DNA of 64,000 bases, from assembly GCF_044704955.1 (NCBI RefSeq), contig NW_027252668.1, positions 3,534,001 to 3,598,000 of the forward strand. Direction: 5' to 3'. The DNA comes from Pristiophorus japonicus. Its lineage: Eukaryota. Position numbers and translations under genes: made by a program. Each line of letters begins with the position of its first letter. Within the stretch, counting starts at the first letter, position 1. The notes below the pieces were generated by a model, which saw nothing but the letters and a program-made list of their open reading frames with translations, had not been told where the DNA came from and searched no databases. Shown here in pieces: positions 10,591 to 58,294 of the stretch.

Positions 10591-10839
10591 CTTGATATTA
10601 AATCCCGACGGTTGATAAACTGGGAGTTTCCTGACCAGAAGTCACCCTCAGTCAATCTCGGTTATAAACCGGTCAATGTCTGTTAAACATGTAAAAATCC
10701 AGATCGATAAACAGAGCAGCGAGTTTGCTGTTCAGATTATTGAATATATACTAGAAGATTTATGAACCTTCCTCATAAGATTTTTGCCTGATAACAGAAC
10801 AGAAACACATAAAGAACAGAGTATAAATCAGGAGGTGTT

Positions 10840-11190
10840 TTTTTTTTTGAAATTCGTAGCCAATCGTTCCAATTCTTTGTCAAATCACAAACGCCAGAGG
10901 TCACCTTGCACACGCCAAGGATCACTCTGCGCCAATGCTCTTTGCCAAAAGGCCTAGAGCCACTGCACCGTTCGTGGAAGTACTGCATTACCAGGTTCGT
11001 GCCATGGAGGTGGATGGGTCAGGTCCCCCACACAACTCCGTGGAGGTGGATGGGTCAAGCCACCCCACCCACCTCCTATTTCCAAAAAAGCAAGCATATA
11101 CCTTCCTGATCCAGGGAGAACCACCTTAGGGTTATGGTGGTTACTCCCCTGTCAGGTCAGTTACGCATGATCTTAGCCAAAAGGCCGAGA
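10840..11190 (-). mobile_element. U2/U1 snRNA-derived chimeric retroposon (SINEU-like)
   Basis: U2 5' end, U1 5' segment, U2 3' half, second U2 5' segment, poly(A); TSD AGGAGGTGTT at 10830-10839 and 11191-11200. Confidence 0.85.
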
Positions 11191-11249
11191 AGGAGGTGTT
11201 GCAACACATGACCTCATTCAAGAATTTTAGATTGTGGCGAGCATAAATT

Positions 11250-11431: not shown

Positions 11432-11809
11432 ATGGCTGACGAAAAGAAAACAGGTCCCGCCAAGAAAGGCGCCAAGAAAGTAATCAAGAAAACCCCAGCG
11501 AAGAGCGGCAAGAGGCGCAGAAGGTCGAGGAAGGAGAGTTACGCCATCTACATCTACAAAGTGATGAAGCAGGTTCACCCCGACACCGGCATCTCCTCCA
11601 AGGCCATGGGCATCATGAACTCGTTTGTGAGCGATATTTTCGAGCGCATCGCGGGTGAGGCTTCCCGCCTGGCCCATTACAACAAGCGCCGCACCATCAG
11701 TTCCCGGGAGATCCAGACCTCCGTGCGCCTGCTGCTGCCCGGGGAGCTGGCCAAGCACGCCGTGTCGGAAGGGACAAAGGCGGTGACTAAGTACACCAGC
11801 TCCAAGTGA
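11432..11809 (+). CDS. H2B: Replication-dependent histone H2B, intact ORF
   Basis: 125 aa with [42 protein letters not shown]. Confidence 0.97.
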
Positions 11810-11849
11810 GAATGCCCGCTGTCCTGACAGATGAAACCCCAAACACAAC

Positions 11850-11890
11850 GGCTCTTTTAAGAGCCACCCACAATCTCTCTGAAAGAGCTG
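11850..11890 (+). terminator. Histone stem-loop and HDE (H2B)
   Basis: GGCTCTTTTAAGAGCC-ACCCA at 11850; GAAAGAGCTG at 11881-11890. Confidence 0.95.
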
Positions 11891-12031
11891 CACAAACGCA
11901 TCTCCCTTTACACTCTGTTTACTGTAATTATTTCCTGAACAACTTTATTTGAGAACTTTTACACTTCCAGTTGTAGATTTAGTTTTGAATTCTCAGATAT
12001 CAGTTTCACTGTCCGGTTCCACTTTAGCGTC

Positions 12032-12061
12032 GCCTTTTGGCTAAGATCATGCGTAACTGAC
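12032..12061 (+). mobile_element. 30-bp head fragment of the U2/U1 chimeric element
   Basis: GCCTTTTGGCTAAGATCATGCGTAACTGAC is the exact reverse complement of 11156-11185. Confidence 0.85.
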
Positions 12062-12545
12062 TGCGGGTCAGTCCGTTTATTAAGCCGAGACTCCCCGCAG
12101 TGTAACAACCCAGAATGGGAGTTCTTCCAGAGACCAGAACCGGGGCTGTTTGAATACTCTGTCCCTCTTTTTTCACAGAAGGACTCCCAATTCTGGGCTC
12201 ACTCCCGCCTTTGCAGGGGATCGATCGATAATCTGTGAAACCCAATTTTTACAAAGATTGAGTTGGAATGTGTCCGTTACAGAATCGGTGGGGATTGATT
12301 CCCGCCCATTAGACAGTTTGAAATAGTACCCGAATTTAATCCTGATTGTAACAGCCTGGCACTTGCAAGGGGAATGTGTAAAAGACAAAATTAATTACAA
12401 TGTGTTGGGAAATCTTTGACTAATGGTGAATTTATATTAACATAATCCGCTATTTTAAAATTTCTTGGCGGGATTTTTGAATTAAAAATCGATATTCTAA
12501 CTGTTGGAGACAGTAATTTCCGCCCTACTTCCATTGGTGGGCTAA

Positions 12546-13082
<537 letters not shown>

Positions 13083-16517: not shown

Positions 16518-17087
16518 CAGCGAGCAGCAGCCTCCTTACAGCAGCGCAGCGCTTTGGGAGCGTGTCCGCAGATGGGCTCAGAGACCGGCACTGAGTCCGG
16601 GGAGAGTCGGGGATCTGTGTGTAAGGGGCGGAGTGGAGCAAGAACCAGTGTCAGTGCGTGGTGTGATTGGGGGGATGGAGAGGCCATTCTCGGGCTGTGT
16701 GTGGACAGTGTGTGTCCAGGGGGAAGGGAGACAGAATGGGCAGAATCTGCTGTTTACAATCATTGCTGCTTTCGCTCTCCTAACCAGGACTGAACGTTCC
16801 TGGTTTAATTCCGTCGGGGGCTGTTTGTTTGTCAGAGGCAGAGTGGAGCAGGAACTAGTTCCGGAACATGGCGTGAGTGGGGGAAGGGAGAGGCCATTCT
16901 CGGGCTGTGTGTGGACAGTCTCTTACTTTCTAGTTGAGGATAAAATGGTCCTCTGATGACTCTGGTTGTAAGCAGATCTTACAGTAGCATCTCATGGTTC
17001 TCGGCATGCCGTTGCACATGAACCAATGAACGTTACTTGGCAGAGTTTGCTTGATGGCTCCTGCATAAGGGTGACACTCGTTAATCG

Positions 17088-17480
17088 TTTGCACTTCAGT
17101 CCCCCGCTCCTGATCTTTGGGCCCCCTGTGCGGAGGGGAGCGGGCAGATCGGAAGGCCTCCTCGTAGGACTGCTCCTGGGCATGGCCAAGGTAGCCATTA
17201 ACCGGTCCAGGCCACGGGCGGTCGAGGGGGTGTTCAGCCTGACTGCCTGCCTCTCTTCCACGGTTATGTTCGTGCCAGGGTGTCCCTGGAGATGGAGCAC
17301 GCGGTGTTCACCGCTATGCTCGTGGCCTTCCGTGAGAGATGGGCGCCAGAGGGACTGGAGTGCATCATCACCCCCAGGAACCAAATTTTAATTTGATCCA
17401 TTTAATGCCAAAGTTAAATTTGTCTGTTTTAATGCCCCTTTAATAAGGGGGCACTTGATTTATTGTTTTACTAAAATAGT
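17088..17480 (+). mobile_element. Tx1-clade LINE 3' fragment
   Basis: LHFSPPLLIFG..RSEGLLVGLLLG matches the ORF2 C-terminus of the element at 44206-51365. Confidence 0.9.
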
Positions 17481-18697: not shown

Positions 18698-20586
18698 ATA
18701 GAAACATAGAAACATAGAAAATAGGTGCAGGAGCAGGCCATTCAGCCCTTCTAGCCTGCACCGCCATTCAATGAGTTCATGGCTGAACATGAAACTTCAG
18801 TACCCACTTCCTGCTTTCATGCCATACCCCTTGATCCCCCGAGTAGTAAGGACTTCATCTAACTCCCTTTTGAATATATTTAGTGAATTGGCCTCAACTA
18901 CTTCCTGTGGTAGAGAATTCCACAGGTTCACCACTCTCTGGGTGAAGAAGTCCCTCCTTATCTCGGTCCTAAATGGCTTACCCCTTATCCTTAGACTGTG
19001 ACCCCTGGTTCTGGACTTCCCCAACATTGGGAACATTCTTCCTGAATCCAACCTGTCCAAACCCGTCAGAATTTTAAACGTTTCTATGAGGTCCCCTTTC
19101 ACTCTTCTGAACTCCAGTGAATACAAGCCCAGTTGATCCAGTCTTTCTTGATAGGTCAGTCCCACCATCCCGGGAATCAGTCTGGTGAATCTTCGCTGCA
19201 CTCCCTCAATAGCAAGAATGTCCTTCCTCAAGTTAGGAGACCAAAACTGTACACAATACTCCAGGTGTGGCCTCACCAAGGCCCTGTACAACTGTAGCAA
19301 CACCTCCCTGCCCCTGTACTCAAATCCCCTCGCTATGAAGGCCAACATGCCATTTGCTTTCTTAACCGCCTGCTGTACCTGCATGCCAACCTTCAATGAC
19401 TGATGTACCATGACACCCAGGTCTCGTTGCACCTTCCCTTTTCCTAATCTGTCACCATTCAGATAATAGTCTGTCTCTCTATTTTTACCACCAAAGTGGA
19501 TAACCTCACATTTATCCACATTATACTTCATCTGCCACGCATTTGCCCACCCACCCAACCCATCCAAGTCACTCCGCAGCCTCACAGCACCCTCCCCGCA
19601 GCTCACACCGCCACCCAACCTAGTGTCATCCGCAAATCTGGAGACACTACATCTAATCCCCTCGTCTAAATCATTAATGTACAATGTAAACAGCTGGGGC
19701 CCCAGCACAGAACCCCGCGGCACACCACTAGCCACCGCCCGCCACTCCGAAAAGCACCCATTCACTCCAACTCTTTGCCTCCCGTCCGACAACCAGTTCT
19801 CAATCCACGCCAGCACACCACCCCCAATCCCATGCGCCCCAACTTTGCACATTAATCTCCTGTGTGGGACCTTGTCGAAAGCCTTCCGAAAGTCCAAACA
19901 CACCACATCAACCGGCACTCCCCCGTCCACTCCACTGGAAACACCCCCAAAAAACTCCAGAAGATCCGTCAAGCACGATCTCCCTTTCACAAATCCATGC
20001 TGAATTGGACCTATCATGTCACCATCCTCCAAACGCGCTGCCACGACATCCCCAATAATTGACTCCATCACTTCACCCACCACTGAGGCCAGGCTGACCG
20101 GTCCACAATTCCCTGCCCTCTCTCTCCCTCCTTTTTTAAAAAGTGGGGTTACATTGGCTACCCTCCACTCGACAGGAACTGATCCAGAGTCAATGGAATG
20201 TTGGAAAATGACTGTCAATGCATCCGCTATTTCCAAGGCCACCTCCTTAAGTACTCTGGGATGCAGTCCATCAGGCCCTGGGGATTTATCGGCCTTCAAT
20301 CCCATCAATTTCCCCAACATAATTTCCCGACTAATAAAGATTTCCCTCAGTTCCTCCTCCTTAATAGACCCTCCGACCACCTTTATATCCGGAAGGTTGT
20401 TCGTGTCCTCCCCAGTGAATACCGAACCAAAGCACCTGTTCAACTGGTCTGCCACTTCCCCGCTCCCCGCCATGACTTCCCCTGACTCTGACCGCAGGGG
20501 ACCCACGCTTGTCCTCACTAACCCTCCTCTCTTTACACACCTATAGAAACTTTTGCAATCCGCCTCAACGTTCCCTGCAAGCCCCT
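18698..20586 (-). mobile_element. Young CR1 copy, A-to-G hypermutated in its 5' half
   Basis: 573-aa open ORF; (ATAGAAAC)n tail; absent from unit B (empty site near 54075). Confidence 0.96.
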
Positions 20587-20589
20587 GAC

Positions 20590-21622
20590 ATGTAGATTAA
20601 ACACCCGCACTCACTTGCCAGAAACTGGCAGGTAGACAATAAAACACACAATCACATATCTTAATATATAAGTTAGAAAGTAAAAACAATACTCTCATAT
20701 CAGAAGCTACGGGTACAGAGCAAAAGCAATAATCACGTATCAGGAAAGGAGAGATTCAGTATTAAGCCATCTCGAATATACCAGAAAATGACAGGTGCAG
20801 AATAAAACCCACACTCCTGTACCATAGACTGACAAATACAATCTACAACCCACACCCACATAGGTGAAAGTGACACGCACAGAGTAAACTCCACACCAGA
20901 GAGTGACAGGTAGAGTGTAAATCCCAGAGTCACATGTCAGAAAACAGAGGTAAAAAGTAAAACTGATACTTGCATTGCAGAATCTGACAGTTTCTGAGCT
21001 AAAGACATATTGCCATCTCATAAACTGGCAGATGCAGAGTGAAACCCACACACACCTATCAGAAAGGTAAAACCGTTACTCACGTATCAGACAAATTCAG
21101 GTAGAACATAAAACAGATATTCACGTTCACATACCAGAGACGGGCAGATAGAGTAAATCCCCGCTCATATAGCAGGAACTGACAGGTACAGTCTAAAACA
21201 TACACCCAAATTGCAGGAGCTAATAGGTGCTGATTAAACCCAGACTAACACACCAGAAACTGAGAGGCACAGATTAAACTCCCACACACATACCTAAATC
21301 TGACAGTTACAGAAATATACACAGACTCGCATATGAGAGACACATGCAGTATAAAGCCCATATTCATGTATCATACATAAAAGCTGACAGTTACAAGTTA
21401 AACTACCACTCATAAGCCAGAAACTGACAGGTACAGATTAAACCAACACTCACATATCAGAAACTGACAGGTTCAGAATAAAATCCACAATCACATACCA
21501 GAAACTGACCAGTACAGATTAAAACAATACTCATATACCAGAAACTGACAGGAACAGATTAAAACACACACTCAGATATGAGAAACTGACAGGTACAGAA
21601 TAAACCCCACTCTCGCATACCA
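20590..21622 (+). repeat. Older diverged ~41-bp satellite variant
   Basis: Units like CAGAAACTGACAGGTACAGAATAAAACCCACACTCACATAC; also about 9430-9720, 25630-25818, 54080-55560. Confidence 0.8.
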
Positions 21623-22906: not shown

Positions 22907-24817
22907 ATAGAAACATAGAAACATAGAAAATAGGTGCAGGAGCAGGCCATTCAGCCCTTCTAGCCTGCACCGCCATTCAATGAGTTCATGGCTGAACATG
23001 AAACTTCAGTACCCCCTTCCTGCTTTCACGCCATACCCCTTGATCCCCCGAGTAGTAAGGACTTCATCTAACTCCCTTTTGAATATATTTAGTGAATTGG
23101 CCTCAACTACTTTCTGTGGTAGAGAATTCCACAGGTTCACCACTCTCTGGGTGAAGAAGTTTCTCCTTATCTCAGTCCTAAATGGCTTACCCCTTATCCT
23201 TAGACTGTGACCCCTGGTTCTGGACTTCCCCAACATTGGGAACATTCTTCCTGCATCCAACCTGTCCAAACCCGTCAGAATTTTAAACGTTTCTACGGTC
23301 CCTCTCACTCTTCTGAACTCCAGTGAATACAAGCCCAGTTGATCCAGTCTTTCTTGATAGGTCAGTCCCACCATCCCGGGAATCAGTCTGGTGAATCTTC
23401 GCTGCACTCCCTCAATAGCAAGAATGTCCTTCCTCAAGTTAGGAGACCAAAACTGTACACAATACTCCAGGTGTGGCCTCACCAAGGCCCTGTACAACTG
23501 TAGCAACACCTCCCTGCCCCTGTACTCAAATCCCCTCGCTATGAAGGCCAACATGCCATTTGCTTTCTTAACCGCCTGCTGTACCTGCATGCCAACCTTC
23601 AATGACTGATGTACCATGACACCCAGGTCTCGTTGCACCTTCCCTTTTCCTAATCTGTCACCATTCAGATAATAGTCTGTCTCTCTGTTTTTACCACCAA
23701 AGTGGATAACCTCACATTTATCCACATTATACTTCATCTGCCACGCATTTGCCCACTCACCTAACCTATCCAAGTCACTCTGCAGCCTCATAGCATCCTC
23801 CTCGCAGCTCACACTGCCACCCAACTTAGTGTCATCCGCAAATTTGGAGACACTACATTTAATCCCCTCGTCTAAATCATTAATGTACAATGTAAACAGC
23901 TGGGGCCCCAGCACAGAACCCTGCGGTACCCCACTAGTCACTGCCTGCCATTCCGAAAAGTACCCATTTACTCCTACTCTTTGCTTCCTGTCTGACAACC
24001 AGTTCTCAATCCACGTTAGCACACTACCCCCAATCCCATGTGCTTTAACTTTGCACATTAATCTCCTGTGTGGGACCTTGTCGAAAGCCTTCTGAAAGTC
24101 CAAATATACCACATCAACTGGTACTCCTTTGTCCACTTTATTGGAAACATCCTCAAAAAATTCCAGAAGATTTGTCAAGCATGATCTCCCTTTCACAAAT
24201 CCATGCTGACTTGGACCTATCATGTCACCATTTTCCAAATGCGCTGCTATGACATCCTTAATAATTGATTCCATCATTTTACCCACTACTGAGGTCAGGC
24301 TGACCGGTCTATAATTCCCTGCTTTCTCTCTCCCTCCTTTTTTAAAAAGTGGGGTTACATTGGCTACCCTCCACTCGATAGGAACTGATCCAGAGTCAAT
24401 GGAATGTTGGAAAATGACTGTCAATGCATCCGCTATTTCCAAGGCCACCTCCTTAAGTACTCTGGGATGCAGTCCATCAGGCCCTGGGGATTTATCGGCC
24501 TTCAATCCCATCAATTTCCCCAACACAATTTCCCGACTAATAAAGATTTCCCTCAGTTCCTCCTCCTTACTAGACCCTCTGACCACTTTTATATCCGGAA
24601 GGTTGTTTGTGTCCTCCTTAGTGAAAACTGAACCAAAGTACTTGTTCAATTGGTCTGCTATTTCTTTGTTCCCCGTTATGACGTCCCCTGATTCTGACTG
24701 CAGGGGACCTACATTTGTCTTTACTAACCTTTTTCTCTTTACATACCTATAGAAACTTTTGCAATCCGCCTTAATGTTCTTCTCGTACTCCATTTTCCCT
24801 GCTCTAATCAAACCCTG
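22907..24817 (-). mobile_element. Young 5'-truncated CR1 with an open 601-aa RT region
   Basis: ORF 23006..24811 with all RT motifs but no endonuclease; (ATAGAAAC)n tail. Confidence 0.97.
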
Positions 24818-24939
24818 ATTATGGCCTGCTCCTGCTCCTATTTCTTATGTTCTTATATAAAAGTAACTACCAAAATTACCAACAGATAGGTGGGCCCATT
24901 ACCAAACTTTACATAAACGGCAATTACTGAATTACCAAC

Positions 24940-37506: not shown

Positions 37507-38113
37507 CTTTCTGTTCTGTGGATCACAATTGTCCCTGATCTAATTTTATACAAAATAGACGGAAGCTGAACGTCAGACCGCTAGTCATTGAACATGTTGG
37601 GACAGCCGAATGTGAAGCGGATAAGAGCCGAGTATAAAGGAATGAGCGGTTGATGGGCTCACTGACTTTTATACGGGCAATAATTCCCTAGGGAGAAATA
37701 TATGCATTCTGAACACATTAATCAATGAGGACTTTTATCCTTTTTTTAAATTTGCGTACAGAAGGATGGAATTCCAGCTCAAGGCTAATTTAAAATATCC
37801 CAAATAGTATCCGACCTGTGCCCGCATTAAGAGCTGGGTTAAAGGTGAGATACAGATTGCAGACAGCTCGTCCCCTCTCTGGAATCTGTCCCGGTATGTG
37901 CAGTGGGATCAATTCACTATCACATCTCCCACTCAGTTAGCGACCCACATTGGGCGGGTGTAGTCGGTATACTGGGCATCTGACTCGCATCTATACATGG
38001 ATCAAAGCCGCACCATCAGATAATCACCGCCTGCACTGCATAAAGCCCCAGTTATAGTAACACTACAAGACGTGTACGGTGTGTACACGGGACAGTTTGC
38101 GTGGAGCCGGTCG

Positions 38114-38154
38114 CAGCCCTTTCCTTTGCTGATTTGATGGCTCTGAAAAGAGCC
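38114..38154 (-). terminator. Histone stem-loop and HDE (H3)
   Basis: Minus GGCTCTTTTCAGAGCC at 38139-38154, followed by ATCAA rather than ACCCA; GAAAGGGCTG downstream. Confidence 0.9.
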
Positions 38155-38199
38155 GTTGTTGCACTTGGTGCGAAAGCTTGGAGCCCGGGCAGGAGTCGT

Positions 38200-38703
<504 letters not shown>

Positions 38704-39393
38704 TCACAGCCCGACGGCCAATCATGTTTCAACCAATCACCGAGAGCGAAAGGGAAGGGCGGGGATTACTGGGCCATGATTGACTGAAATGAAACTGACA
38801 GTTCGTCAATTTCAAACAGCCCGCCAATTTCAGAGTCTCAAGGAACAGGGATTAAAGAAACTCGAATTTCCCACCAGCAATTTAAGATTCCGGCTCTTTA
38901 TAACCTCGATGGTGCCCCATTATAAATCACCAATCCCATTCTCTTTAACATTCCGGTTTGAATTCTGTCCCATTAATGATGGGTCTGTAGCGGGCGGGAA
39001 TAATTCCCCGGTCACTGCATCCTGTAAACACAAAGTCCCGCATCCATCCCGCCAGTGCCGTCCCGTTTCATCAATTGTCACACACAAAGCTCACAACATA
39101 ACAGGATTATCTGTGAGGGGAGACTGTAATCCCGCCCGCTGATTGTGACCGGGACACCCGGAGTTTCTAATCTCATATTAAACTATTGTTCTAAAATATT
39201 TAATAGTTCCCATATTCCTACAGCGACTGCACTGCAAAAGTACTTTATTGGCTTTGAGAAGTCCGATGGCCGTGTAAGGCGCTACATAACTCGGCGTGTT
39301 ACTTTCCATTAAATAAATAACTCAAATAATTTCCCACCCAAATTGTCCACAGAACCATCCCCAAGTCATTGCTGTCTTTGTGAGGCGGTGGGT

Positions 39394-39409
39394 GGCTCTT
39401 AAAAGAGCC
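39394..39409 (-). terminator. Histone stem-loop (H4)
   Basis: Minus GGCTCTTTTAAGAGCC-ACCCA. Confidence 0.95.
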
Positions 39410-39443
39410 TTTGTGTTGTGCTGGATGGAAAGGGTGGAGTTGT

Positions 39444-39764
<321 letters not shown>

Positions 39765-40423
39765 TCACTCAAACTGTCGCTGAATGAGGAACCAACTGCT
39801 CCTGGCTCCTTTTTTATAGAGCCGGCCCCGACCTGACTGAGAAAGCGCAGAGTGAGAGAGGCGGGAAGGGGAGGAGACAGAGTGAGAGGTTAAACAGAGA
39901 GCGCGGCAGGGGAGGAGACAGAATCAAGATTGAGAGACAGAGCAGAGCGCCGCCTCTGATCTTCCAGCTCCACCTCCAGCTTGCTACAACCGCCAATTTC
40001 AAATTGTTTTCTCCACAATACAACCGATACACAGCGCTCCGCACGAACCCTTACAGACTCGGAATTCATATTCAAGGCTTCCAGGGACCAGAAGCTTTTA
40101 AATAAGGTCCTGGTACAATTAACAATCAGGAATATTCCCGCCTATATAGTCCGTTCCCTGTCAATCTCAGACCTTATTCCATCTCCTCTCACAGACCGGT
40201 TCAGCACTTTACAAACACCTTATTCCAGCTGATTTTGAGAATCTGAAGTTTGGGGTTTGAGTTGTGAGGCGAGATATCGCCGCCAGTCCCATCGTCTCAC
40301 AGAGACTCTTCCCCCTGAATCTGTGAAATGACAATGACCAGGAACTGAGACTGGAGCCGGACTCAAACCCCAGTTACAGTGAGGCCCGGTCCGGACATTC
40401 CATTCTCTGTGTTTTATTGTAGG

Positions 40424-40598
40424 CACTGGGGGAGGGGTGGGTGCAGACACTGGGGGAGGGGTGGGTGCAGACACTGGGGGAGGGGTGTGTGTTGGCACTG
40501 AGGCACTGGGGGAGGGGTGGGTGCAGACACTGGGGGAGGGGTGGGTGCAGACACTGGGGGAAGGGTGGGTGCAGACACTGGGGTAGGGGCGGGTGCAG
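40424..40598 (+). repeat. 24-bp G-rich minisatellite
   Basis: CACTGGGGGAGGGGTGGGTGCAGA about 7 times. Confidence 0.92.
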
Positions 40599-40692
40599 CC
40601 AATGGCAACGAGTCACGAGGGATCCCGGGGTCATTTTCAATTATTTCTATCTGGAATCTGAGCCCGGGACAGGGATTATTTGATTCCGGGAT

Positions 40693-40733
40693 CAGCTCTT
40701 TTCTGAGAGGCGTGGGTGGCTCTGAGAAGAGCC
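40693..40733 (-). terminator. Histone stem-loop and HDE (H1)
   Basis: Minus GGCTCTTCTCAGAGCC-ACCCA at 40718-40733; AAAAGAGCTG downstream. Confidence 0.93.
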
Positions 40734-40767
40734 TTTGGGTTTAAATGTTTAGAAGTTGCCTTTTTAT

Positions 40768-41286
40768 TTACTTTTTGGGCGCTGCTTTCTTGACCTTTGC
40801 TGATTTGGACGTGGCCTTGACCCTCTGGTTCTCCACCTTTTTGGCCGCCTTCACTTTCTTGGGACTCTTGGGCTTCTTCACCGCCGCCTTCTTCCCAGCC
40901 GGCCCTTTCGCTGTCTTTTTTGCTGTTGGTGCCTTCTTGGTGCTCGTTTTCTTAGCTGCTGCTTTCTTTGCTGGAGATTTCTTGGCTGCTGCTTTCTTTG
41001 CTGGAGATTTCTTGGCTGCTGCTTTCTTGGCTGCTGGCTTCTTCACCTTCTTTCCCACTTTCTCCTGGGGATCCGTCTTAGCGATTTTGAAGGAGCCCGA
41101 GGCGCCCGTGCCCTTGATCTGCTTCAGGGAGCCATTCATCACATTCTTCTTAATACTGAATATGATCTGGGACCCGCGCTTCTCCACATCCACACCTTTG
41201 GCCGCCAGAGCCTTCTTTATCGTGGCCAGGGACATTCCTCTGCGATCCTTGCCATCGGCCACAACCTTGAGGATGTTGGTCGCCCA
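40768..41286 (-). pseudogene. H1: Histone H1, 5'-truncated
   Basis: Globular domain (GMSLATIKKAL..KQIKGTGASGSFK) and K/A-rich tail with SPAKK repeats; N-terminal tail, start codon and promoter absent. Confidence 0.92.
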
Positions 41287-41751
41287 GACACAGACAGATA
41301 CAGTATCAGTTTTACACTTTGTATCAGTGTCTCCATAATACGCTCAGTAACAGTGCCACACCTTCATGTATTGCACCAGAGAGAGAAACAGAGACATTAT
41401 CCGTCTTGCACTTCCAACAGTGTTTCCACATCACGCTAAATAACAGTATCCCGCCTTCACAACCAGTACAAGAGAGAGCGAATAGCAACAGAGAGTCAGA
41501 GAGAGAGGGGAGAGGTCTGAGCGAGAGACAGGAGAGTGCGAGGTCGGGCGGTGAGACACAGAAAGACATGCACAGTATCAGTTCCAGACTGACCTGTGAA
41601 GTCCCGTTTTATTCTGGAGAGACAGAAGATGAAGTCTCCTCTCTCACTATATTGTACCAGAGACAGAAACATTATGAATCCCACACTGCGGGACAGTGTC
41701 AGAGAGTGAGAGAAACAGTGTCCCACATTTATCACTTGCTTGGCTATGATC

Positions 41752-44028: not shown

Positions 44029-44449
44029 AACTAAACTAATCTCGAACTATTTCTGTCAGATATTAACTCCTGCGCGGTCCCAGCAAAAACTTCCACTCCC
44101 TCGTCCCTCCGATGTTTTTGCAGGATTGCTTTGTGAAGACAGCTGAATGGGGAGAAATTACAACATGCTGCGGTGCAGAGGGACCTGGGGATCCTTGTGC
44201 ATGAAACTTTTTTGGAGTTTACCTGAAAAACATAAACATTAATCTGTGCCCCCCGACCTGGATGACACACCAGACATTTACAAGGCCCTTTTTTCATTTT
44301 TTTTTTTTTTTGTGTTTTTCTTTTTTGGGGTTTTTTTTTTTGGGCACTAATATCACATTTTTTTTTTCCAGTGCCCCCTATAAAAGGGGAGGGGGACACT
44401 AAAAGCACCGGCAATTAAAACAAATTAAACTTTAAAACATAAAATCAAA

Positions 44450-47400
44450 TTAAAATTTGGTTGCCGGGCGTGATGATGCACTCCAGTCCCTCCGGTGCCC
44501 ACCTCTCGCGGAAGGCCACGAGCGTACCGGTGGACACCGCGTGCTCCATCTCCAAGGACACCCTGGACCGGATGTAAGAGCGGAAGAGAGGCAGGCAGTC
44601 AGGTTGAACGACCCCCTCGACCGCCCGCTGCCTGGACCGGCTGATGGCACCCTAGGCCGTGCCCAGGAGCAGTCCTACGAGGAAGCCCTCGGACCTACCC
44701 GCTCCCCTCCGCACAGGGTGCCCAAAGATCAGGAGAGTGGGACTGAAGTGCAGCCAGAATTTCAGGAGCAGCCCCTTTAAATAATAAAACAGGGGCTGCA
44801 ACCTCGTGCACTCAATAAAAACATGGAACACGGACTCCTCCAGACCGCAGAAATTGCAGGCGGCCTGGGAGTCCGTGAACCGGCTTAAAAATTTGTTGCA
44901 CGGCACTGCTCCGTGCACCACCCTCCAGGCCAAGTCCCCGATGAATAGTGGGAGGACTCCCGCATAGAGTGCCCTCTATCGGGGACCACTGCCTCCTCCG
45001 GACGGCAAGATGGTACGCCATGGCGTGTCCGGACGGCCGGCGAGGATGGAAAAGTTGAGAGTGTGCAGGAGCAGCCCATACAGGAAACCCCTCCGCGCGG
45101 AACTGAAAAGCACGGAGGAGATTTCCCCGAGGCGGCTCAAGTTGTGAGGCGCCGGCCCCCGAGGGAGGTTCCGGGGTTTGGCGCCGATGAGGAATTCCGT
45201 CCGGACGGGGGTCAGTTCGGACGGGATCTCCCCACGTGCTTGAGCCTCCTTGATGCACCTAACAGAGTCAGGGCCCAAAGCTGTTTTTAGCGACTCGATG
45301 GCTTTGGCCGCGCGGCGGACGTCGGCTGAATTTAGGCGCCACGCCAGCGTGCCTGGCGCCATCCAGCCCGCTCCTCCGCCATCGAGCAGGTCCCTGACCC
45401 TGGTCACCTCACCAGCCACAGCCCTCTCCTCCGACCGCCACATAAAACCTCGGTCGTGGAGGTACGGATTCCCGAGCAGCGGCTCCTGCAGGACAGCCGC
45501 CACTCCAGCCGGCGGAGAGCTGCGCTTGGTGGAGACTTTGTTCCAGACCCTGATGAGTTCCTTGTAAAAGACAGGCAGCTCCCGGAGGGCGGTCCTGACA
45601 CCCCCCAAGTTCATAAACAGGAGCTGCATGTCGTAATTGAGGTCGCGCTGCTGGCGGAAGAAATACGTCGCCAGAGCACACCACCTAGGAGGGGGCTCGA
45701 CGTAAAGGTATCTCTGCAGGGTCTGAAGACGGAAAGTCGCGAGCTGGGCGCTGACGCACACAACGACTGACCGCCCTCCTCAAGCGGGAGACTCAAGACC
45801 GCGGCAGAGACCCAGTGCTTCCTGTTGTTCCATAAGAAGTCCACCAGCTTCTTCTGTAACTTGGCGACAAACGCAGGGGGAGGGGTCAAAGTGACCAGCC
45901 GGTACCACAACATTGCGGCCACCAGCTGGTTTATGACTAGCGCTCGACCCCTGTAGGACAGCACTCGGAGCAGTCCTGTCCAGCGCCCTAGGCGAGCGAC
46001 GACCTTGGCCTCCAGCTCCTGCCAGTTCGCCGGCCAGGCTTCCTCGTCGGGGCTAAGGTAGACTCCCAGATAGAGGAGATGGGTCGTACTCCAGGCAAAA
46101 GGCCTGAGCTCCTCCGGCAGGGAGTCCACCCGCCACTGACCCACCAGGAGTCCGAAACATTTCTCCCAGTTGATCCTGGCGGAGGACGCGGCCGAGTAAA
46201 TCTCCTGGCACTCACACATCCTCCGCAGGTCAGCGGGATCCTCTACCGCGAGGAGCACGTCATCGGCATAAGCCGAGAGGACGACCTCCACGCCCGGCCC
46301 TTGCAGAGCCAGTCCCGTCAACCTCGTCCGCAGGAGGCGCAGGAAAGGCTCCACGCAGATGGCATATAATTGGCCGGACATGGCGCATCCCTGGCGCACC
46401 CCTCTCCTAAAGCGAAGGGGCGCCATCAAGGACCCGTTAACCTTAATCAGACACTCTGCGGCGGCGTACAAAAGTCGGATCCGGGCGACGAAATACGTCC
46501 CGAACCCGAAAGCGTGCAGAGTTCCGAGCAGATAGTCGTGATCCACCCTGTCGAACGCCTTCTCTTGGTCGAGAGATAGGAAGGCGACCGACAGACCAGC
46601 CTCCTGGGAATGATTGATGAGGTCCCGGACCAGATGGATGTTGTCGTGGATTGTCCGGCCCGGGACCATGTAGGACTGGTCGGGGTGGATCATGTGGTCC
46701 AGCACGGCACCGAGGCGAGCATACATCGCCCTGGCGAAGATCTTGTAGTCCGTGCTGAGGAGGGAGACCGGGCGCCAGTTCTTAAGGAGGTGGAGATTGC
46801 CCTTCTTAGGCAGCAGGACGATGACTGCCCTGCACCAAGAGAGGGGCATCTCCCCGGTCGCCAGACTTTCCCCCAGGACCCGCGCGTAGTCGCTCCCCAG
46901 GACGTCCCAGAATGCCCTGTGGAACTCCACGGTCAGCCCGTCCAGCCCCGGGGTTTTTCCCCTCGAGAGCCGGTCGAGGGCACCGGTCAGCTCCGCCAGG
47001 CTTAGCGGAGCTTCCAAATTTTCACCGCCCTCCGGGCTGACTTTCGGCAGGTCCTCCCACAAAACTCTATGCGCTTCCTCGCTGGACGGATCCGGAGAGA
47101 ACAGAGCCCCGTAATATTCACGGGCCCTGTTGTTGACGCCCTCCGGATCCAAGACGAGAGAGCCGTCGTCGGCCAGCAGCGTCAAGAGCTGCTTGCGGAC
47201 ACTCTGCCTTTTTTCCAGCGAGTAGAAGAATAGGGAGCCGCGGTCCAGATCCCACAGGAACCGGATCCGCGACCTCACGAACGCGCCTCGGGACCCGACG
47301 AGCTGCAGGTCCTTCAGCGTGGCCTTCTTCGCTTCGTACACCGTCCGCAGGGCCGGGTCCCCGACGACTTGACCGAGACGGGACTCCAGGTCGAGCACCT

Positions 47401-48343
47401 CTTTTTCTAGGCGCCTGACCCTGGCTGCCGGCCTCTTGGTCGACCCCCTCGCGTACTCTTGACAGAAGACGCAGACGTGAGCCTTGCCCACGTCCCACCA
47501 TAGCCTCAAGGAGGGGAAGCCCCCCTGCTTCCTTCTCCAGTTGGCCCAGAATCGACGGAACGAGTCCTGGAACCGCTCGTCCTCCAGCAGCCGGTTGTTA
47601 AAGTGCCAGTACGCGGACCCCATCCTTGCGCGGAGCGAAGCAAGCTCCGCCCACACCAGGTGGTGGTCCGAACACGGCACCGGCCGCATGGAGGCCGCCG
47701 GGACGCAGGAAACGTTCGCCCGAGACACGTAAAGGCAGTCGACTCTGGACCATCCTACTCCAGGCCTCACCCAAGTAAAGGCGCTGGAGTCGGGATGGAG
47801 ATTTCGCCAGACGTCCACCAAGTCGAAGGACCCGACCAGGTCCCTCAACTTCCCCATCGCCGTCATGCTCTGCGGGGCACCGGAGCGGTCCCTCGCCTCG
47901 AGGGTGCAGTTAAAATCCCCCCCGAGGACAATGCAGTCGCCGACGTCGACGGAGCCAAGAAGAGCGGACACCTCTTCGAAGAAGCGCATTTGCTGCGGGC
48001 CTGGCTGAGGGGCGTACACGTTCATGAGATGGAGCGGCACGTCCCCCAGGCGAACCGTTACGTGCAGCAAGCGGCCTGGCATGGGCTTCTCGACCCCCAA
48101 GATCTCCGGCTAAAAATGCAGGGCCAGCAAGATGGCCACCCCACTAGAAGTGGCGGTGAGGTGGCTCATGCGGACCTCTCCTTGCCATTCCAGGAGCCAC
48201 GTGGCTTCGTCTCCCGGAACGGTGTGGGTTTCTTGCATGAAGCACACCGCATATTTCCCCTCCAGCAGGAGCGAAAAATTGTTAAATCTACGGCGTGCCT
48301 CTTTGCCGCCGTTGATGTTGAGGCTGGCTATGGTTATCTCCAT
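44450..48343 (-). pseudogene. Tx1 ORF2 (APE endonuclease, RT, zinc ribbon), disrupted
   Basis: SLNING, QETH, GGDFN, SDH; WRPVSLL, KAFD, QGCAMS, YADD; CNFC..HVFIEC; stops at 48110 and 44976 plus frameshifts. Confidence 0.95.
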
Positions 48344-48368
48344 GACAAAAGCATAGTGTAACCTCTAC

Positions 48369-50470
48369 CTAACCTATTGTTGGGGGGGGGAGTGGAGTCG
48401 TTTGCTGACCTCCACTCCTTCAGCAGCCCAGCGAGGAACTTTTTGAGCCGGCGCAGCTCAAGGCCTTGCATCTTTGATAAGGGCCCGCCCGCGGCCATGG
48501 TTTTAGCGGCGGCGCGGACGGAAGCGATGAGCAGCCCCGGCTCGGATCATCTTTCCCGGACCAGATGGGCTCGGTTGCGGCGACCCTGGCTCTCGACAAA
48601 AAAGTCCCGGAGTACCTCTACGGGAATGAGGGGGGACTCAGCGGCGGGCACGAGGAGATCCACCGCCTCACTGGCGATGGACTCGAGATCTTCACCCGCG
48701 TCCTCCACCGAGTCCCCGTCCTCCTCCGGGAGGTCGCCGCTAGCAGCCGGCCCGTCGACCGCACGAGGTACGGCAAACGGCCCGGCCGCTCCATCCGGCC
48801 CTGGCTCTGCCCCGATCCCACCCCCAGGATCGTCGGCAGAGGAGTCCCCACTGGGCTCTTTTAGAATTGGTGCTGGGTCGGGGAGCGACAGCGGAAGGGG
48901 TTCCTCCTCCGCCCCAGGAACCGGGAAACACGGAGAGACCTGGTCAAAGAAATGAACCAGGTCCTCCAAGTCCCCCAGCCCCAAAGTAGGGGGCGAGGGT
49001 TGTTGTTTTTCCCCTTCTCCGCTGCCACCCCCCGGCCCAGCGTGTACAGATTCATTAAAATTGCTAATACTTTGTATTTCTGCCGGGTCGAGCAAGTCCC
49101 GGGGGAAGTTGGATATTGGCTGGGCGGGCTCGGGTTCGGCCTTTTCGGCCCCGCCCGCCTCAGTCCCCGGGACGCTCGACCCGGCGGCAACGCATTCCTC
49201 TGCTGGCCCCACGCCCCCCATGACAGGCAGATCTTTCACACCATCCCCGGGAGGCAGCGGCTGGGCAGCCTCGACTGTCCCACCCTCCCCGGGGACAGAT
49301 TCCTCGCGCCTATGGCACGGTTTGGGGGCGCCGGTGGGGGACGCGTGACACGCGGCGGGCACCGACTCCTCCGCGGAGGGATGTTGTTCCCCCCCCGCCT
49401 CATTGGAGCGGCGCCTCCTTTTGTTCCTGGGGGGGGCGCGGAGGCAGGGAGACCTCCATGTCTGCCGAAGCCTCCCGCTCCACCCACCCCTTTTTCTTGT
49501 CTTGCCCGCGCCCGAGCCCCTCTGTGATACTGATCAAGGGCTCGGGCACGGGCTCAGGGCACCCCGCGCTCGCCGGTGACGGGGTTGGGCCGAGCGCGGT
49601 AAATAGATTATCTGGTGCACTGAGGGGACCCGCCTCTAGATGTTTCGTCTTCTTCCGTGCCTTCTTTCCGGTCGGACGCTCTCCCTCCCCCCCACCGGAG
49701 GCCGTGAAAACAAAGGCCTCCGACGATGCCTGCGCACCTATGGCTCCCGGCACGCGGACGCAACTAGGGGGAGGGGTGGCGGCGGCGCCAGCCTTGGCCG
49801 CCTTTGGTGGTTTGGCGGCTTTGGAGGCGGGGCAGTTCTTGCGAACATGCCCCACCTCCCTACAGGCATGGCACCGCACGCCGTCCGATGTCCAGAAGAC
49901 ACGGTAGGCATTCCCCTCGTGCACCACATTAAAATTGCCCTCTGTTGTCTCCTCCCACGCCAGCCGGACAAAGAGCTGGCGGCGGAAGGAGAACACATGG
50001 CGCAGGCTGTTCTCCCTGAGGCCGAGCGGTATGGGGTTGATCCCCGACCTTACCTCCCCCAGTTGGTGTCGGTGAGGGAGGAGGAGCTCAGCGGGAACAA
50101 AGGGCGGGACATTCGATAGAATGACCCTCTGCGCGGTGGCCTCGAGAGGGTCCACCGGCAGGAACGCCCCGCCCACCGTGAGCCCCTTTTCAATGGCCAG
50201 GGACACCGCTCGCTCCGACCCCAGGAAGAACACGGCCTTCCCAGACATCTTGGAGGCTGCGACAATGGCCGAGGGGCCGACTACCCCAGCCATCGCCCGC
50301 ACGCACTCAATGCTCATTGTGGGGTGAGTGTAGCTCTTGACCCCGTTTTTCTTTGTAATGAGTCTGAAAGGTGGCAGGGCAGCAGGTGGCGCAGGAGGTG
50401 CCGTGGATGTGGACGCCGCCTGCGCATATGTCCTAGCTGGCCCTGCCACCGGCGTAGATGGGGTCGCCAT
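48369..50470 (-). pseudogene. Tx1 ORF1, frameshifted
   Basis: YAQAA motif, VILSNVPPF, zinc knuckle CHACREVGHVRKNC; continues in ORF 48547..49362; 3' end approximate. Confidence 0.9.
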
Positions 50471-51378
50471 CACGGGGTCCCTTTAAGGGCCACACCCACC
50501 CCAAAGTCACAGGCCTTAATGGTCTTAAGTGGCCTCGTTTGAATGTATGAACAGAGGGAGCTCTGAAAGAGGCACACCTCTCCCCTAGTTGGCAATTGGG
50601 GAGGGGCCTTGCTCCCTCTGCTCAGTTGTTTTAATTGTTTTTTATTAAAAAATTAGGAGGAAGGGCTCTCAGAGAGAGAGGGGAGAGACAGAGAGAGAGA
50701 GATAGAGTGAGGGGGTGTGGGAAAGAGGGAGGCTGCGAGGGCAGGTCTCCCCTCACAGCAATGGGTGGGTGCACTCCCCAGATGGCAAAACAAAACACAG
50801 TCTTTGGGGTGGGGGGAGAAGATGTCTTCACCTGGGGCAGCTGGAGCCACACAGGCACACACACCCAACGATGTTAACCAGGGTAATCAATAGTTATCAG
50901 CCTGGTAGCTCCAACTATCCCAGGCTAGGCAATGGGGGAGGGGAGCTTCAGTGGTGTGTGGGGCCTAGTTGTAAGCAAGAACCCCACACACACTTCCACA
51001 CACACACACCCCCCGCGATGTTCCGGCCCTTGAAAGGTCTTCCTTTCTCCCCCCACCAATAAAACAATGTCTTTCGGGGAATGCACCAACACCCACCTGC
51101 AGAATATTGCAGAATCTCCCTCCCTCCACACAGGTTGTTGCTCTTTCCACTCTCTCCAACTCTCTGTAGCAGTAATAAAGTTGGTAATTTTTCTGCGCTC
51201 CACCTCTCCCTCCGGATGTTGATTGGGTAGCAAGCCAGCCCTTCCCTCCTATTCCTGGGCTGTTCTCAGGGCTCACTCCAGACAGGAGCAAAGCAGGTAG
51301 CTCCTTCTCTCTCTGCAGCTTAGCTCCAACTGAATAGGCCACGCCTCCACTGCTCCACCATTGGCCCTTGTGCATGAG

Positions 51379-52020
51379 ACTCTTTTAGGAGTAAACAAAA
51401 AACATTAAACCGTGCCCCCCGATCTGGGGGAAACACCAACATTTACAATGCCCTTTTTTATTTAATTTTTATTTTTTGGGGTTTTTTTGGGCACAGAATT
51501 GAATTTTTATCCAAGTGCCCCCTACAAAAGGGGAGCGGGACACTAAAAGCACCGGCAATTAAAACAAATTAACTTAAAAACATAAAGTCAAATTAAAATT
51601 TGGTTGCCGGGCGTGATGATGCACACCAGACCCTCCGGTGCCCACCTCTCGCGGAAGGCCGCGAGCGTACCGGTGGACACCGCGTGCTCCATCTCCAAGG
51701 ACACCCTGGCGCGGATGTATGCGTGGAAGAGAGGCAGGCAGTCTGGCTGAACGACCCCCTCGACCGCCCGCTGCCTGGACCGGCTGATGGCCCCCTTGGC
51801 CGTGCCCAGGAGCAGTCCTACGAGGAGGCCCTCGGACCTACTCGTTCCCCTCTGCACAGGGTGCCCGAAGATCAGGAGTGTGGGACTGAAGTGCAGCCAG
51901 AATTTCAGGAGCAGCCCCTTTAAATAACAAAACAGGGGCTGCAACCTCATGCACTCAATAAAAACATGGAACACGGACTCTTCCAGACCGCAGCAATTGC
52001 AGGCGGCCTGGAAGCCCGTG
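51379..52020 (-). mobile_element. 5'-truncated second Tx1 copy, head-to-tail with the long copy
   Basis: ORF 51588..52133 closely matches the ORF2 C-terminus; 3' UTR is related but diverged. Confidence 0.95.
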
Positions 52021-56457: not shown

Positions 56458-57028
56458 GTCAGAGCCGCCAAGCCTGGCACCAGCAAACCCTGGGGGCAGT
56501 GCCACCCGCACACCACTTGCATTTATGCAGCAGGCCCAGCAATTCCCAGTCGCTCTATCAGGGAGGGCGCTGGATGTGGAAGTCTCTCCCTGACCTCCTG
56601 TGTGGGTCTGTTCGTTGCATCAGTTTGAGCTGGAGTGGGGAGGAGGGAGAAGCTGCTGGGTTTCACCCCCAGTACTTCTGGGCCCAGTGGGACCAACAAT
56701 TTCCCATGTGGGACTGTCACGGGAGGTGGGTTCCCTTTCCTGAAGGACAGTCGTGACCCAGATGTGTTTTTATGACAATCCGGCAGCTTTCATTGTCACT
56801 TTTTTCTAGTGCTGGCCCCACAAATGACCAGATTCATCAAGCTCAATTTCACAAACTGCCTTTGTGTTTTTGTGGGTTCTCTCTCACACTCCCTTTTACC
56901 TGTTTGAAATTCACTTTATAGGGTATTAAAAGGGGAGGATTTGTAGACTGGAAGCTCAAACCAAACATCACTTCAAGATCTGACAGTCACTCGATACATC
57001 GGGACCGGAATATCATCAGCTTTTGACC

Positions 57029-58294
57029 ATGGAAGCAGAAGGCACCGTTCACAGTGGGGAGAAACGGTACACGTGCTCTGTGTGTGGACAAGGCTTCAGC
57101 CAATCATCCAACCTGGAGAGACACAAGCACAGTCACATTGGGGAGAAACCATGTAAATGTGAGGACTGTGGGAAACGATTCAACTACCCGTCCCAGCTGA
57201 AAATGCACCAGCCATTTACCTGCTCTGACTGTGGGAAGGGATTCACTGCATCATCCCACCTGCTGACACACCAAGTTCCCACTGGGGAGAGGCTGTTCAT
57301 CTGCACGGAGTGTGGGAAGGGATTCACTGTATCATCCAGCCTGCTGACACACCAGCGAGTTAACACTCGGGAGAGTCCGTTCACCTGCTCCGACTGTGGG
57401 AAGGGATTCACTGCATCATCCCACCTGCTGACACACCAGCAAGTTCCCACTGGGGAGAGGCCGTTCACCTGCTCCGACTGTGGGAAAGGATTCACTCAGT
57501 TATCCGCCCTACTGAGACACCAGCGAGTTCACACTGGGGAGAGACCTTTTAAATGTTCTGACTGTGAGAAGAGTTTTAAAAGCAAACAGCAACTCCTGAC
57601 ACACCAGCGAGTTCACACTGGGGAGAGGCCGTTCACCTGCTCCGAGTGTGGGAAGAGATTCACTCAGTCATCCAGCCTGCTGACACACCAGCAAGTTCAC
57701 ACCGGGGAGAGGCCGTTCACCTGCGTGGAGTGTGGGAAGGGTTTCACTGTATCATCCAGCCTGCTGATACACCAGCAAGTTCACACTGGGGAAAGGCCGT
57801 TCTCCTGCTCCGACTGTGGGAAGGGATTCACTCAGTTATTCGCCCTGCTGAGACACCAGCGAGTTCACACTGAGGAGAGACCTTTTAAATGTTCTAACTG
57901 TGAGAAGAGTTTTAAAAGCAAACAGCAACTCCTGACACACCAGCGAGTTCACACTGGGGAGAGGCCTTTTAAATGTTCTGACTGTGAGAAGAGTTTTAAA
58001 AGCAAACAGCACCTGCTGATACACCAGCGACTTCACACTGGGGAGAGGCCGTTCACCTGCTCAGAGTGTGGGAAGGGATTCACTCTGTCATACCACCTGC
58101 TGAGACACCAGCGAATTCACACAGGGGAGAGGCCGTTCAGCTGCTCTGAATGTGGGATGGGATTCACTCGGTCAGCCCACCTGCTGAGACACCAGCGAAT
58201 TCACACTGGGGAGAGGCCGTTCACCTGCTCAGAGTGTGGGAAGGGATTCATTCGATCATCCAACCTGCTGAGCCACCAGCGAGTTCACAAGTGA
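57029..58294 (+). CDS. Tandem C2H2 zinc-finger protein, 15 finger units, no KRAB visible
   Basis: Open ORF from ATG 57029 with TGERPF linkers; candidate splice acceptor at 56921. Confidence 0.93.

Follow-up and report, generated by a model that had tools for sequence, protein, structure and literature searches.

Short retroposons with U1 or U2 snRNA heads have been described as SINEU-1, -2 and -3, three families of crocodilians (Kojima 2015, PMC4494074). That study reported no SINEU outside crocodilians and named SINEU transcription as an open question, which the accessible passages of PMC5786205 repeat. Keno, a U2-specific LINE of the Tx1 clade with an APE endonuclease, is described in PMC4494074 and in the available parts of PMC4640811 and PMC6136364, the latter two placing its site at U2 nt 38/39. 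R2 and R2 SIDE are site-specific inhabitants of a tandem RNA-gene array, the rDNA, and are expressed from the host unit, according to the parts of PMC3414825 and PMC6895275 available to us. A search of openly accessible literature, which included parts of PMC8010984, PMC4758252 and PMC5753468, returned no non-crocodilian SINEU, and the available text of a study on shark SINEs (PMC5499810) has no passage on snRNA.

Structure and insertion site of the element

The sequence analysed here is a 64,000-nucleotide stretch of contig NW_027252668.1 of Pristiophorus japonicus (hereafter the window). It contains a retroposon of 355 bp on the minus strand (11192–10838), with the order U2-U1-U2-U2-tail-poly(A), which is positioned upstream of, and opposite to, the H2B gene of a histone cluster. 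An initial annotation had proposed a U2-U1-U2-U2 retroposon at 10830–11200, and all its parts were recovered in their places:

11191–11200, minus strand: 5' copy of the target site duplication (TSD), 10 bp, whose final 2 nt double as U2 nt 5–6
11162–11192, minus strand: U2 head, U2 nt 5–35 (element nt 1–31), 5'-truncated by 4 nt and 29/31 identical to the genome's array U2, with nt 5–29 exact; proposed homology arm
11105–11161, minus strand: U1 nt 3–57, 5' end and stem-loop I (element nt 32–88), from alignment to the genome's U1 genes and fold
11039–11101, minus strand: U2 Sm-site region and stem III copy 1 (element nt ~92–154), from Rfam and the genome's own U2
10963–11042, minus strand: stem III copy 2 and stem-loop IV, U2 nt 109–186 (element nt 151–230), overlapping stem III copy 1, from Rfam and the genome's own U2
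10936–10958, minus strand: internal U2 head, U2 nt 7–29 (element nt 235–257), from alignment to the genome's U2
10849–10935, minus strand: hairpin-forming tail of 87 nt, origin not matched, with longer or shorter forms in all subfamilies
10838–10848, minus strand: poly(A) run, A11, read from the sequence
10830–10839, minus strand: 3' TSD copy, sharing 2 nt with the A-run

The perfect 10-bp TSD noticed at the outset is the word AGGAGGTGTT, found at both 10830–10839 and 11191–11200, where it overlaps the head by 2 nt. In 19/19 paralogous histone-cluster units (19 of the 39 other scored places were read) the insertion site is empty and the word is present once. The head, annotated as exact over U2 nt 5–29, continues as a match to nt 35 (29/31), and the U1 piece, annotated as about nt 3–55, aligned as nt 3–57 against the genome's U1 genes, with its stem retained and lengthened and its loop altered, as judged from alignment and fold. 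The partly duplicated stem III is likewise real, but what we take to be the core of the Sm site, also part of the original description, is missing in the window subfamily and kept in older subfamilies. Stem IV and the second U2 head are present as well; the 'decay' seen in both is mostly private to this copy, which differs by 6 substitutions from a related copy (L007). The tail, estimated at ~90 nt, measures 87 nt and ends in A11. The suggested search with Rfam models succeeded for U2 (49.0 bits, E 3.2e-8, gathering cut-off 46, span 11196–10958) but not for U1, whose 19.6 bits (E 0.031) fall below the gathering cut-off. The fold z-score of −3.9 is expected from the snRNA hairpins and was hence not counted as support.

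The surrounding histone cluster (11432–13082 and 38052–41343), with H2B, H2A, H3, H4 and H1 frames and histone 3' stem-loops, is one of many such units on the contig. Further family copies occur in paralogous units (L223, L220, L224 and L229), one of them in the H2B coding start with a TSD. Within the window, a 30-nt head piece of the window subfamily lies at 12032–12061 on the plus strand; it spans the U2-U1 junction, has neither TSD nor tail, and replaces about 175 bp found in most of the 16 paralogous units read. It possibly stems from break repair that used cDNA or RNA of the element.

A multicopy family with one chimaeric layout

A whole-element search of the 5.9-Gb genome gave 1,618 candidates, and 40/40 of those scored were near full length, with 96–100% identity, on 18 contigs. 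Exact-word counts, which are lower bounds and whose reversed-word controls gave 0 matches, amounted to at least 4,683 for the inner head-tail junction, at least 2,238 for the window-type U2-U1 junction, at least 388 for the sister head and at least 570 for the older tail. From these junction counts, many copies share one fixed chimaeric layout and are not independent chimaeras, and a one-off chimaeric retropseudogene is excluded. We also searched 57 loci for TSDs of at least 10 bp with at most one mismatch; the loci were not picked by target, and two duplicates and one window repeat had been dropped. Such TSDs were found at 34/57 loci compared with 1.55 for mismatched pairs; in a few of the 34, a local repeat or the A-run of an adjoining tandem copy forms part of the TSD. 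The genome-wide check called for in the initial annotation thus found a multicopy, SINEU-like, snRNA-derived family with independent TSDs, in which both 5'-truncated and tandem copies are common.

Six subfamilies, A to F, measure 262–347 nt excluding the A-run and differ by the U1 and U2 pieces that they gained. Subfamily A consists of a whole U2 (91–97% identical to the array type, with a few flank bases), followed by U2 7–38 and a short tail; its inner head ends at U2 nt 38, which is the nick position of Keno. Subfamily B is a decayed A. In subfamilies C and D, U2 1–52 is altered, U1 stem-loop I substitutes for roughly U2 53–90, stem III is duplicated and the tail is longer, while E and F, the latter including the window copy, have a fresher U1 3–26 piece. 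Across C–F the U1 stem is preserved and the loop varies. The order probably ran from A to F, as we infer from structure and likeness to U2 and not from a rooted tree. The U1 piece did not arrive by simple 5' addition, the mode of growth that the initial annotation gave for the crocodilian families: it is internal and replaces U2 nt ~53–90 of the older U2-only form. A copy tree was rough, its bootstrap not settled, and was used for near-identical sets alone; in the window head type it contained sets of 4 and 5 identical dispersed copies, and the most identical copies of the family reach 100%.

The family falls into the SINEU structural class, to which it was matched by description of the crocodilian families and not by consensus sequence. 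Like SINEU, it is non-coding and shorter than 500 bp and has a U1/U2 head, poly(A), TSDs, tandem insertions and internal T runs; both have no tail in common with a LINE, grow by snRNA pieces and share a target with a Keno-related Tx1 group, some members of which have U1/U2 heads. SINEU-1C/H show the order U2-U1-U2-tail, and in SINEU-2 the 3' half of U2 is fused to U1 stem-loop I. In contrast to SINEU, whose target is Mariner-N4, the family lives in a different host class, and the targets found are U2 genes and a Gypsy site; it also has an intact U2-targeting motor, candidate sources behind U2 flanks and copies up to 100% identical. That it is already catalogued in Repbase or Dfam seems to us rather unlikely, though by no means negligible.

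Insertion sites shared with a Keno-like Tx1 LINE

The genome contains a LINE of 5,720 nt with an ORF1 of 581 aa and an ORF2 of 1,147 aa, the latter with an APE-type endonuclease, reverse transcriptase (RT) and zinc domains. Its ORF2 is open in nine copies within the stretches read, and neighbouring copies are 98.7–99.8% identical. The RT is 39% identical to the Takifugu RT BAD04856.1, 37% to the Danio pol-like BAC82621.1 and 39% to a Danio "TX1", none of which is labelled Keno. Among long sequences, amphibian and fish RTs are nearest (37–49%, one named TX1); among short ones, fragments in shark proteins come closest to ORF2 (81% and 71%). Like Keno, the LINE has two ORFs, an APE-type endonuclease and an RT; its insertion point lies just ahead of U2 nt 39, with the 3' target word that has been published. 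We refer to it as Keno below. It differs from Keno as described in the available parts of the literature, where a dependent SINE is unmentioned, by being widely dispersed (487 matches to its 3' end) and by carrying its own altered U2 nt 1–44 head. This head belongs to the element, because in one copy (L300) it follows a non-seamless junction; Keno and the SINE both have a U2-derived 5' end. Of 30 Keno 3' ends read, 0 were within real U2 genes, 2 were inserted in a related Gypsy and 2 abutted family copies. An older relative with a U2 1–33 head was also seen (L098). The idea that altered heads escape the Keno cut was refuted, as Keno inserts in its own head at nt 39 and in the D head at nt 40.

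The SINE and Keno share two exact target sites. Junctions between an A-run and U2 nt 39 number 86, at U2 nt 38/39. The first 30 comprised 19 family copies (16 young copies in old ones and 3 in real U2 genes) and 11 Keno-type 3' ends, and 13 further regions contained the same two kinds only. The second site is one position in the pol region of Gypsy, at which 95 A-run junctions contrast with 6,710 empty sites. Here, 46/48 junctions read in list order were family copies and 2/48 were bare A-runs (L064 and L087, each with a TSD), and Keno occupies the identical position in L197 and L204, L197 having been chosen because the two match lists overlapped there. The target was assigned to Gypsy from putative RT, RNase H and integrase motifs in the frames read; the same recurrent upstream sequence had been considered as a LINE 3' UTR, which we discarded. 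The recurrent flanks identified were Gypsy, U2 and the family itself, in a comparison that included no Mariner consensus, and nested Keno/SINE insertions were also present.

We considered whether the main motor could be a different LINE, namely a second Tx1 family to which the tail belongs. The tail matched no small RNA in Rfam and neither Keno nor the Tx1 of the window beyond shuffles, the single above-shuffle score being due to the A-run alone; besides, Keno is rare at the Gypsy site, where 46/48 insertions are the SINE, and further Tx1 families exist (window 44300–50500). However, no LINE with this tail was found: among the first or best matches listed, 30/30 old-tail loci and the 29 tail-selected loci besides the window were U2-bearing SINE copies with no LINE end. 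Together with the two sites shared exactly with Keno and the nested insertions, this makes such a main motor highly improbable. The Tx1-like LINE of the window itself (about 44300–50500, minus strand, with pieces at 16930–17390 and 51400–52020) belongs to another family and has broken ORFs. Its ORF2 is just 32.5% identical to that of the U2-targeting LINE and the common tail consists of A-runs only, so that it was rejected as the partner. Tx1 mobilisation, which the initial annotation had linked to the window's Tx1 elements, is thus supported for the clade but not for these copies: the motor is likely the Keno-like LINE with intact ORFs, elsewhere in the genome's U2 arrays. We are highly confident that the family is a SINE with Keno-type mobilisation.

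Copies at the start site of U2 genes

The main U2 array has a unit of about 780 bp, with 257 intact units in the assembly, and 46/46 of its U2 copies read were identical. Some of the U2 array sequence is on short, unplaced contigs, and the assembled arrays may lack units; this was not counted as evidence. In 17 array units, a D-subfamily element immediately follows the U2 5' flank at +1, and its A-run leads into U2 nt 39, so that U2 1–38 have been replaced without a scar (an 18th match in this search, L137, was a dispersed chance match). The same arrangement occurs once in a second U2 type (L108), and 12 Keno heads occupy the same +1 position behind the U2 flank. Such replacement of the first bases of real U2 genes suggests how promoter-less elements become transcribed. 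Of the 18 copies of the newest variant, 16 lie in arrays. The 2 dispersed ones, L237 and L238, are identical over 339/339 and 341/341 positions to the array copy L153, L237 having a 12-bp TSD, and each of three array sequence types has a dispersed copy 0–1 mismatch distant; this identity gives no direction of copying, and array copies may have been amplified by recombination.

The second U2 gene type (L108–L120, L127–L131, L298–L299; 21 heads) differs in its flank, has stem IV altered by a compensatory change and is often trailed by a Keno 3' fragment. At a U2 array edge (L121–L126), 60 kb contain no intact U2, and each unit carries Keno or the SINE, some of them nested.

Outside arrays, 26/96 heads begin exactly at U2 +1, the commonest start, and these 26 have no common upstream extension beyond target words. 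This bears on a reading in which the family and its Keno motor are the same, but the sources are dispersed and read through from host or Gypsy promoters; +1 would then be reached by an RT jump onto U2 snRNA within the shared head, as in Kojima's SINEU model, and array copies would be favoured landing sites amplified by unequal crossing-over. PMC4494074 favours upstream promoters and template switches of this kind, and the U1 pieces were evidently gained through template switching or recombination. Moreover, the window head type, the largest with at least 2,238 copies, has 0 copies behind either U2 flank, all 17 array copies belonging to the smaller D subfamily; one copy of the window type (L107) lies inside a real U2 gene with the 5' flank deleted. 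Finally, 5/57 unselected copies sit at the single Gypsy site, and L004 and L023 have a common 30-nt Gypsy-derived 5' extension, so read-through sources may exist. Yet these 2 copies are the only ones genome-wide with that extension, and the 26 heads at +1 lack any shared upstream sequence. In thousands of copies, changes specific to a subfamily follow immediately on U2 nt 28, and the newest variant is array-resident in 16/18 cases; both observations also argue against dispersed sources, which we therefore consider unlikely, if clearly less so than a second motor.

Transcription signals

A search of the main array flank for PSE-like or octamer matches to U1 flanks found none (p 0.31–0.95), and the second U2 type flank gave p 0.07–0.29; U1 genes have what we take to be an octamer at about −205. 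CpG retention at the main array flank was 0.95 versus 0.46. In the absence of a PSE or octamer match, the term 'promoter' for this flank rests on its position, the 46/46 identical U2 copies and CpG retention. We rate capture of this external U2 promoter by the element as fairly probable. Keno may have a promoter of its own too, since its 5' UTR (L134) contains, just after the U2 head, words that we take to be an octamer and a CCAAT-type motif.

Alternatively, the element could be transcribed like an ordinary SINE from an internal promoter, either Pol III or an unrecognised Pol II element, with no need for a U2 gene. Thousands of dispersed copies in many sublineages would be compatible with this, as would a weak word within the U2 head that is presumably A-box-like. 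Two traits of classical SINEs (tRNA, 5S or 7SL) are absent from the family, an internal Pol III promoter without an early T run and a 3' tail in common with the partner LINE. Against an internal promoter, and judged by the box motifs as we assume them, seven representatives have no exact B box and no tRNA, and T4–T6 runs lie near the 5' end and in the middle in 7/7; T runs were noted at nt 15–18 and ~105. External promoters drive U1 and U2 genes (PMC4494074), and we regard an internal promoter as highly improbable.

A candidate life cycle in U2 arrays

We favour the reading, with a probability of about 0.62, that this is a young, non-autonomous U2/U1-derived family which a Keno-like Tx1 LINE mobilises in trans and whose sources reside in arrays. 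In this cycle, the LINE endonuclease would nick a U2 gene at nt 38/39 and the A-run would prime reverse transcription. The U2-head cDNA would then pair with U2 nt 1–28 upstream of the nick, similar to the proposal for R2 in the available part of PMC6895275, in which RNA derived from the target, at the 5' end, allows the cDNA to anneal to target sequence upstream. The element would thereby come to lie precisely at the +1 position of the external Pol II promoter of U2; array-resident copies would act as source genes, RNA starting at U2 +1 would restore the head, and this RNA would be copied back into other U2 units. We propose that relaxed specificity of Keno accounts for the genome-wide spread of copies, and the window copy, upstream of H2B, would be one of the dispersed daughters that lack a promoter. 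Going further, we see even odds that the U2 head serves as a homology arm and not as a promoter, that the array stores and amplifies sources, and that this is an independently evolved, still active SINE to which Keno supplies the enzymes.

R2 SIDE, as far as the accessible passages describe it, is a non-autonomous partner like the present element. It is an internal deletion of the LINE with a ribozyme and a Pol I co-transcript, whereas the present element has only the U2 head in common with its LINE, would be transcribed from a Pol II snRNA start site and is scattered across the whole genome. Our candidate cycle, if true, would mean that snRNA arrays, like rDNA, can sustain an R2-style lifestyle; it would also outline a general life cycle for SINEU-type elements, imply repeated invention of SINEs from Pol II snRNAs and provide a naturally occurring pair for RNA-templated insertion whose multicopy target is defined. 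One genome holds a young family together with an intact motor and with candidate sources behind U2 flanks, so the question of SINEU transcription becomes directly testable, and this would be the first such case. In addition, the presence or absence of the youngest copies may be useful as a marker.

Other features of the window

A CR1-like LINE copy at 18797–20596 (minus strand) differs from its twin at 23006–24844 by 110 substitutions in 1,777 columns, 95 of which are A-to-G and patchy in distribution. The copy resembles the product of an RNA that underwent A-to-I hyper-editing before its reverse transcription and insertion. At 56984–58294 (minus strand), an open frame of 436 aa contains tandem C2H2 zinc fingers.
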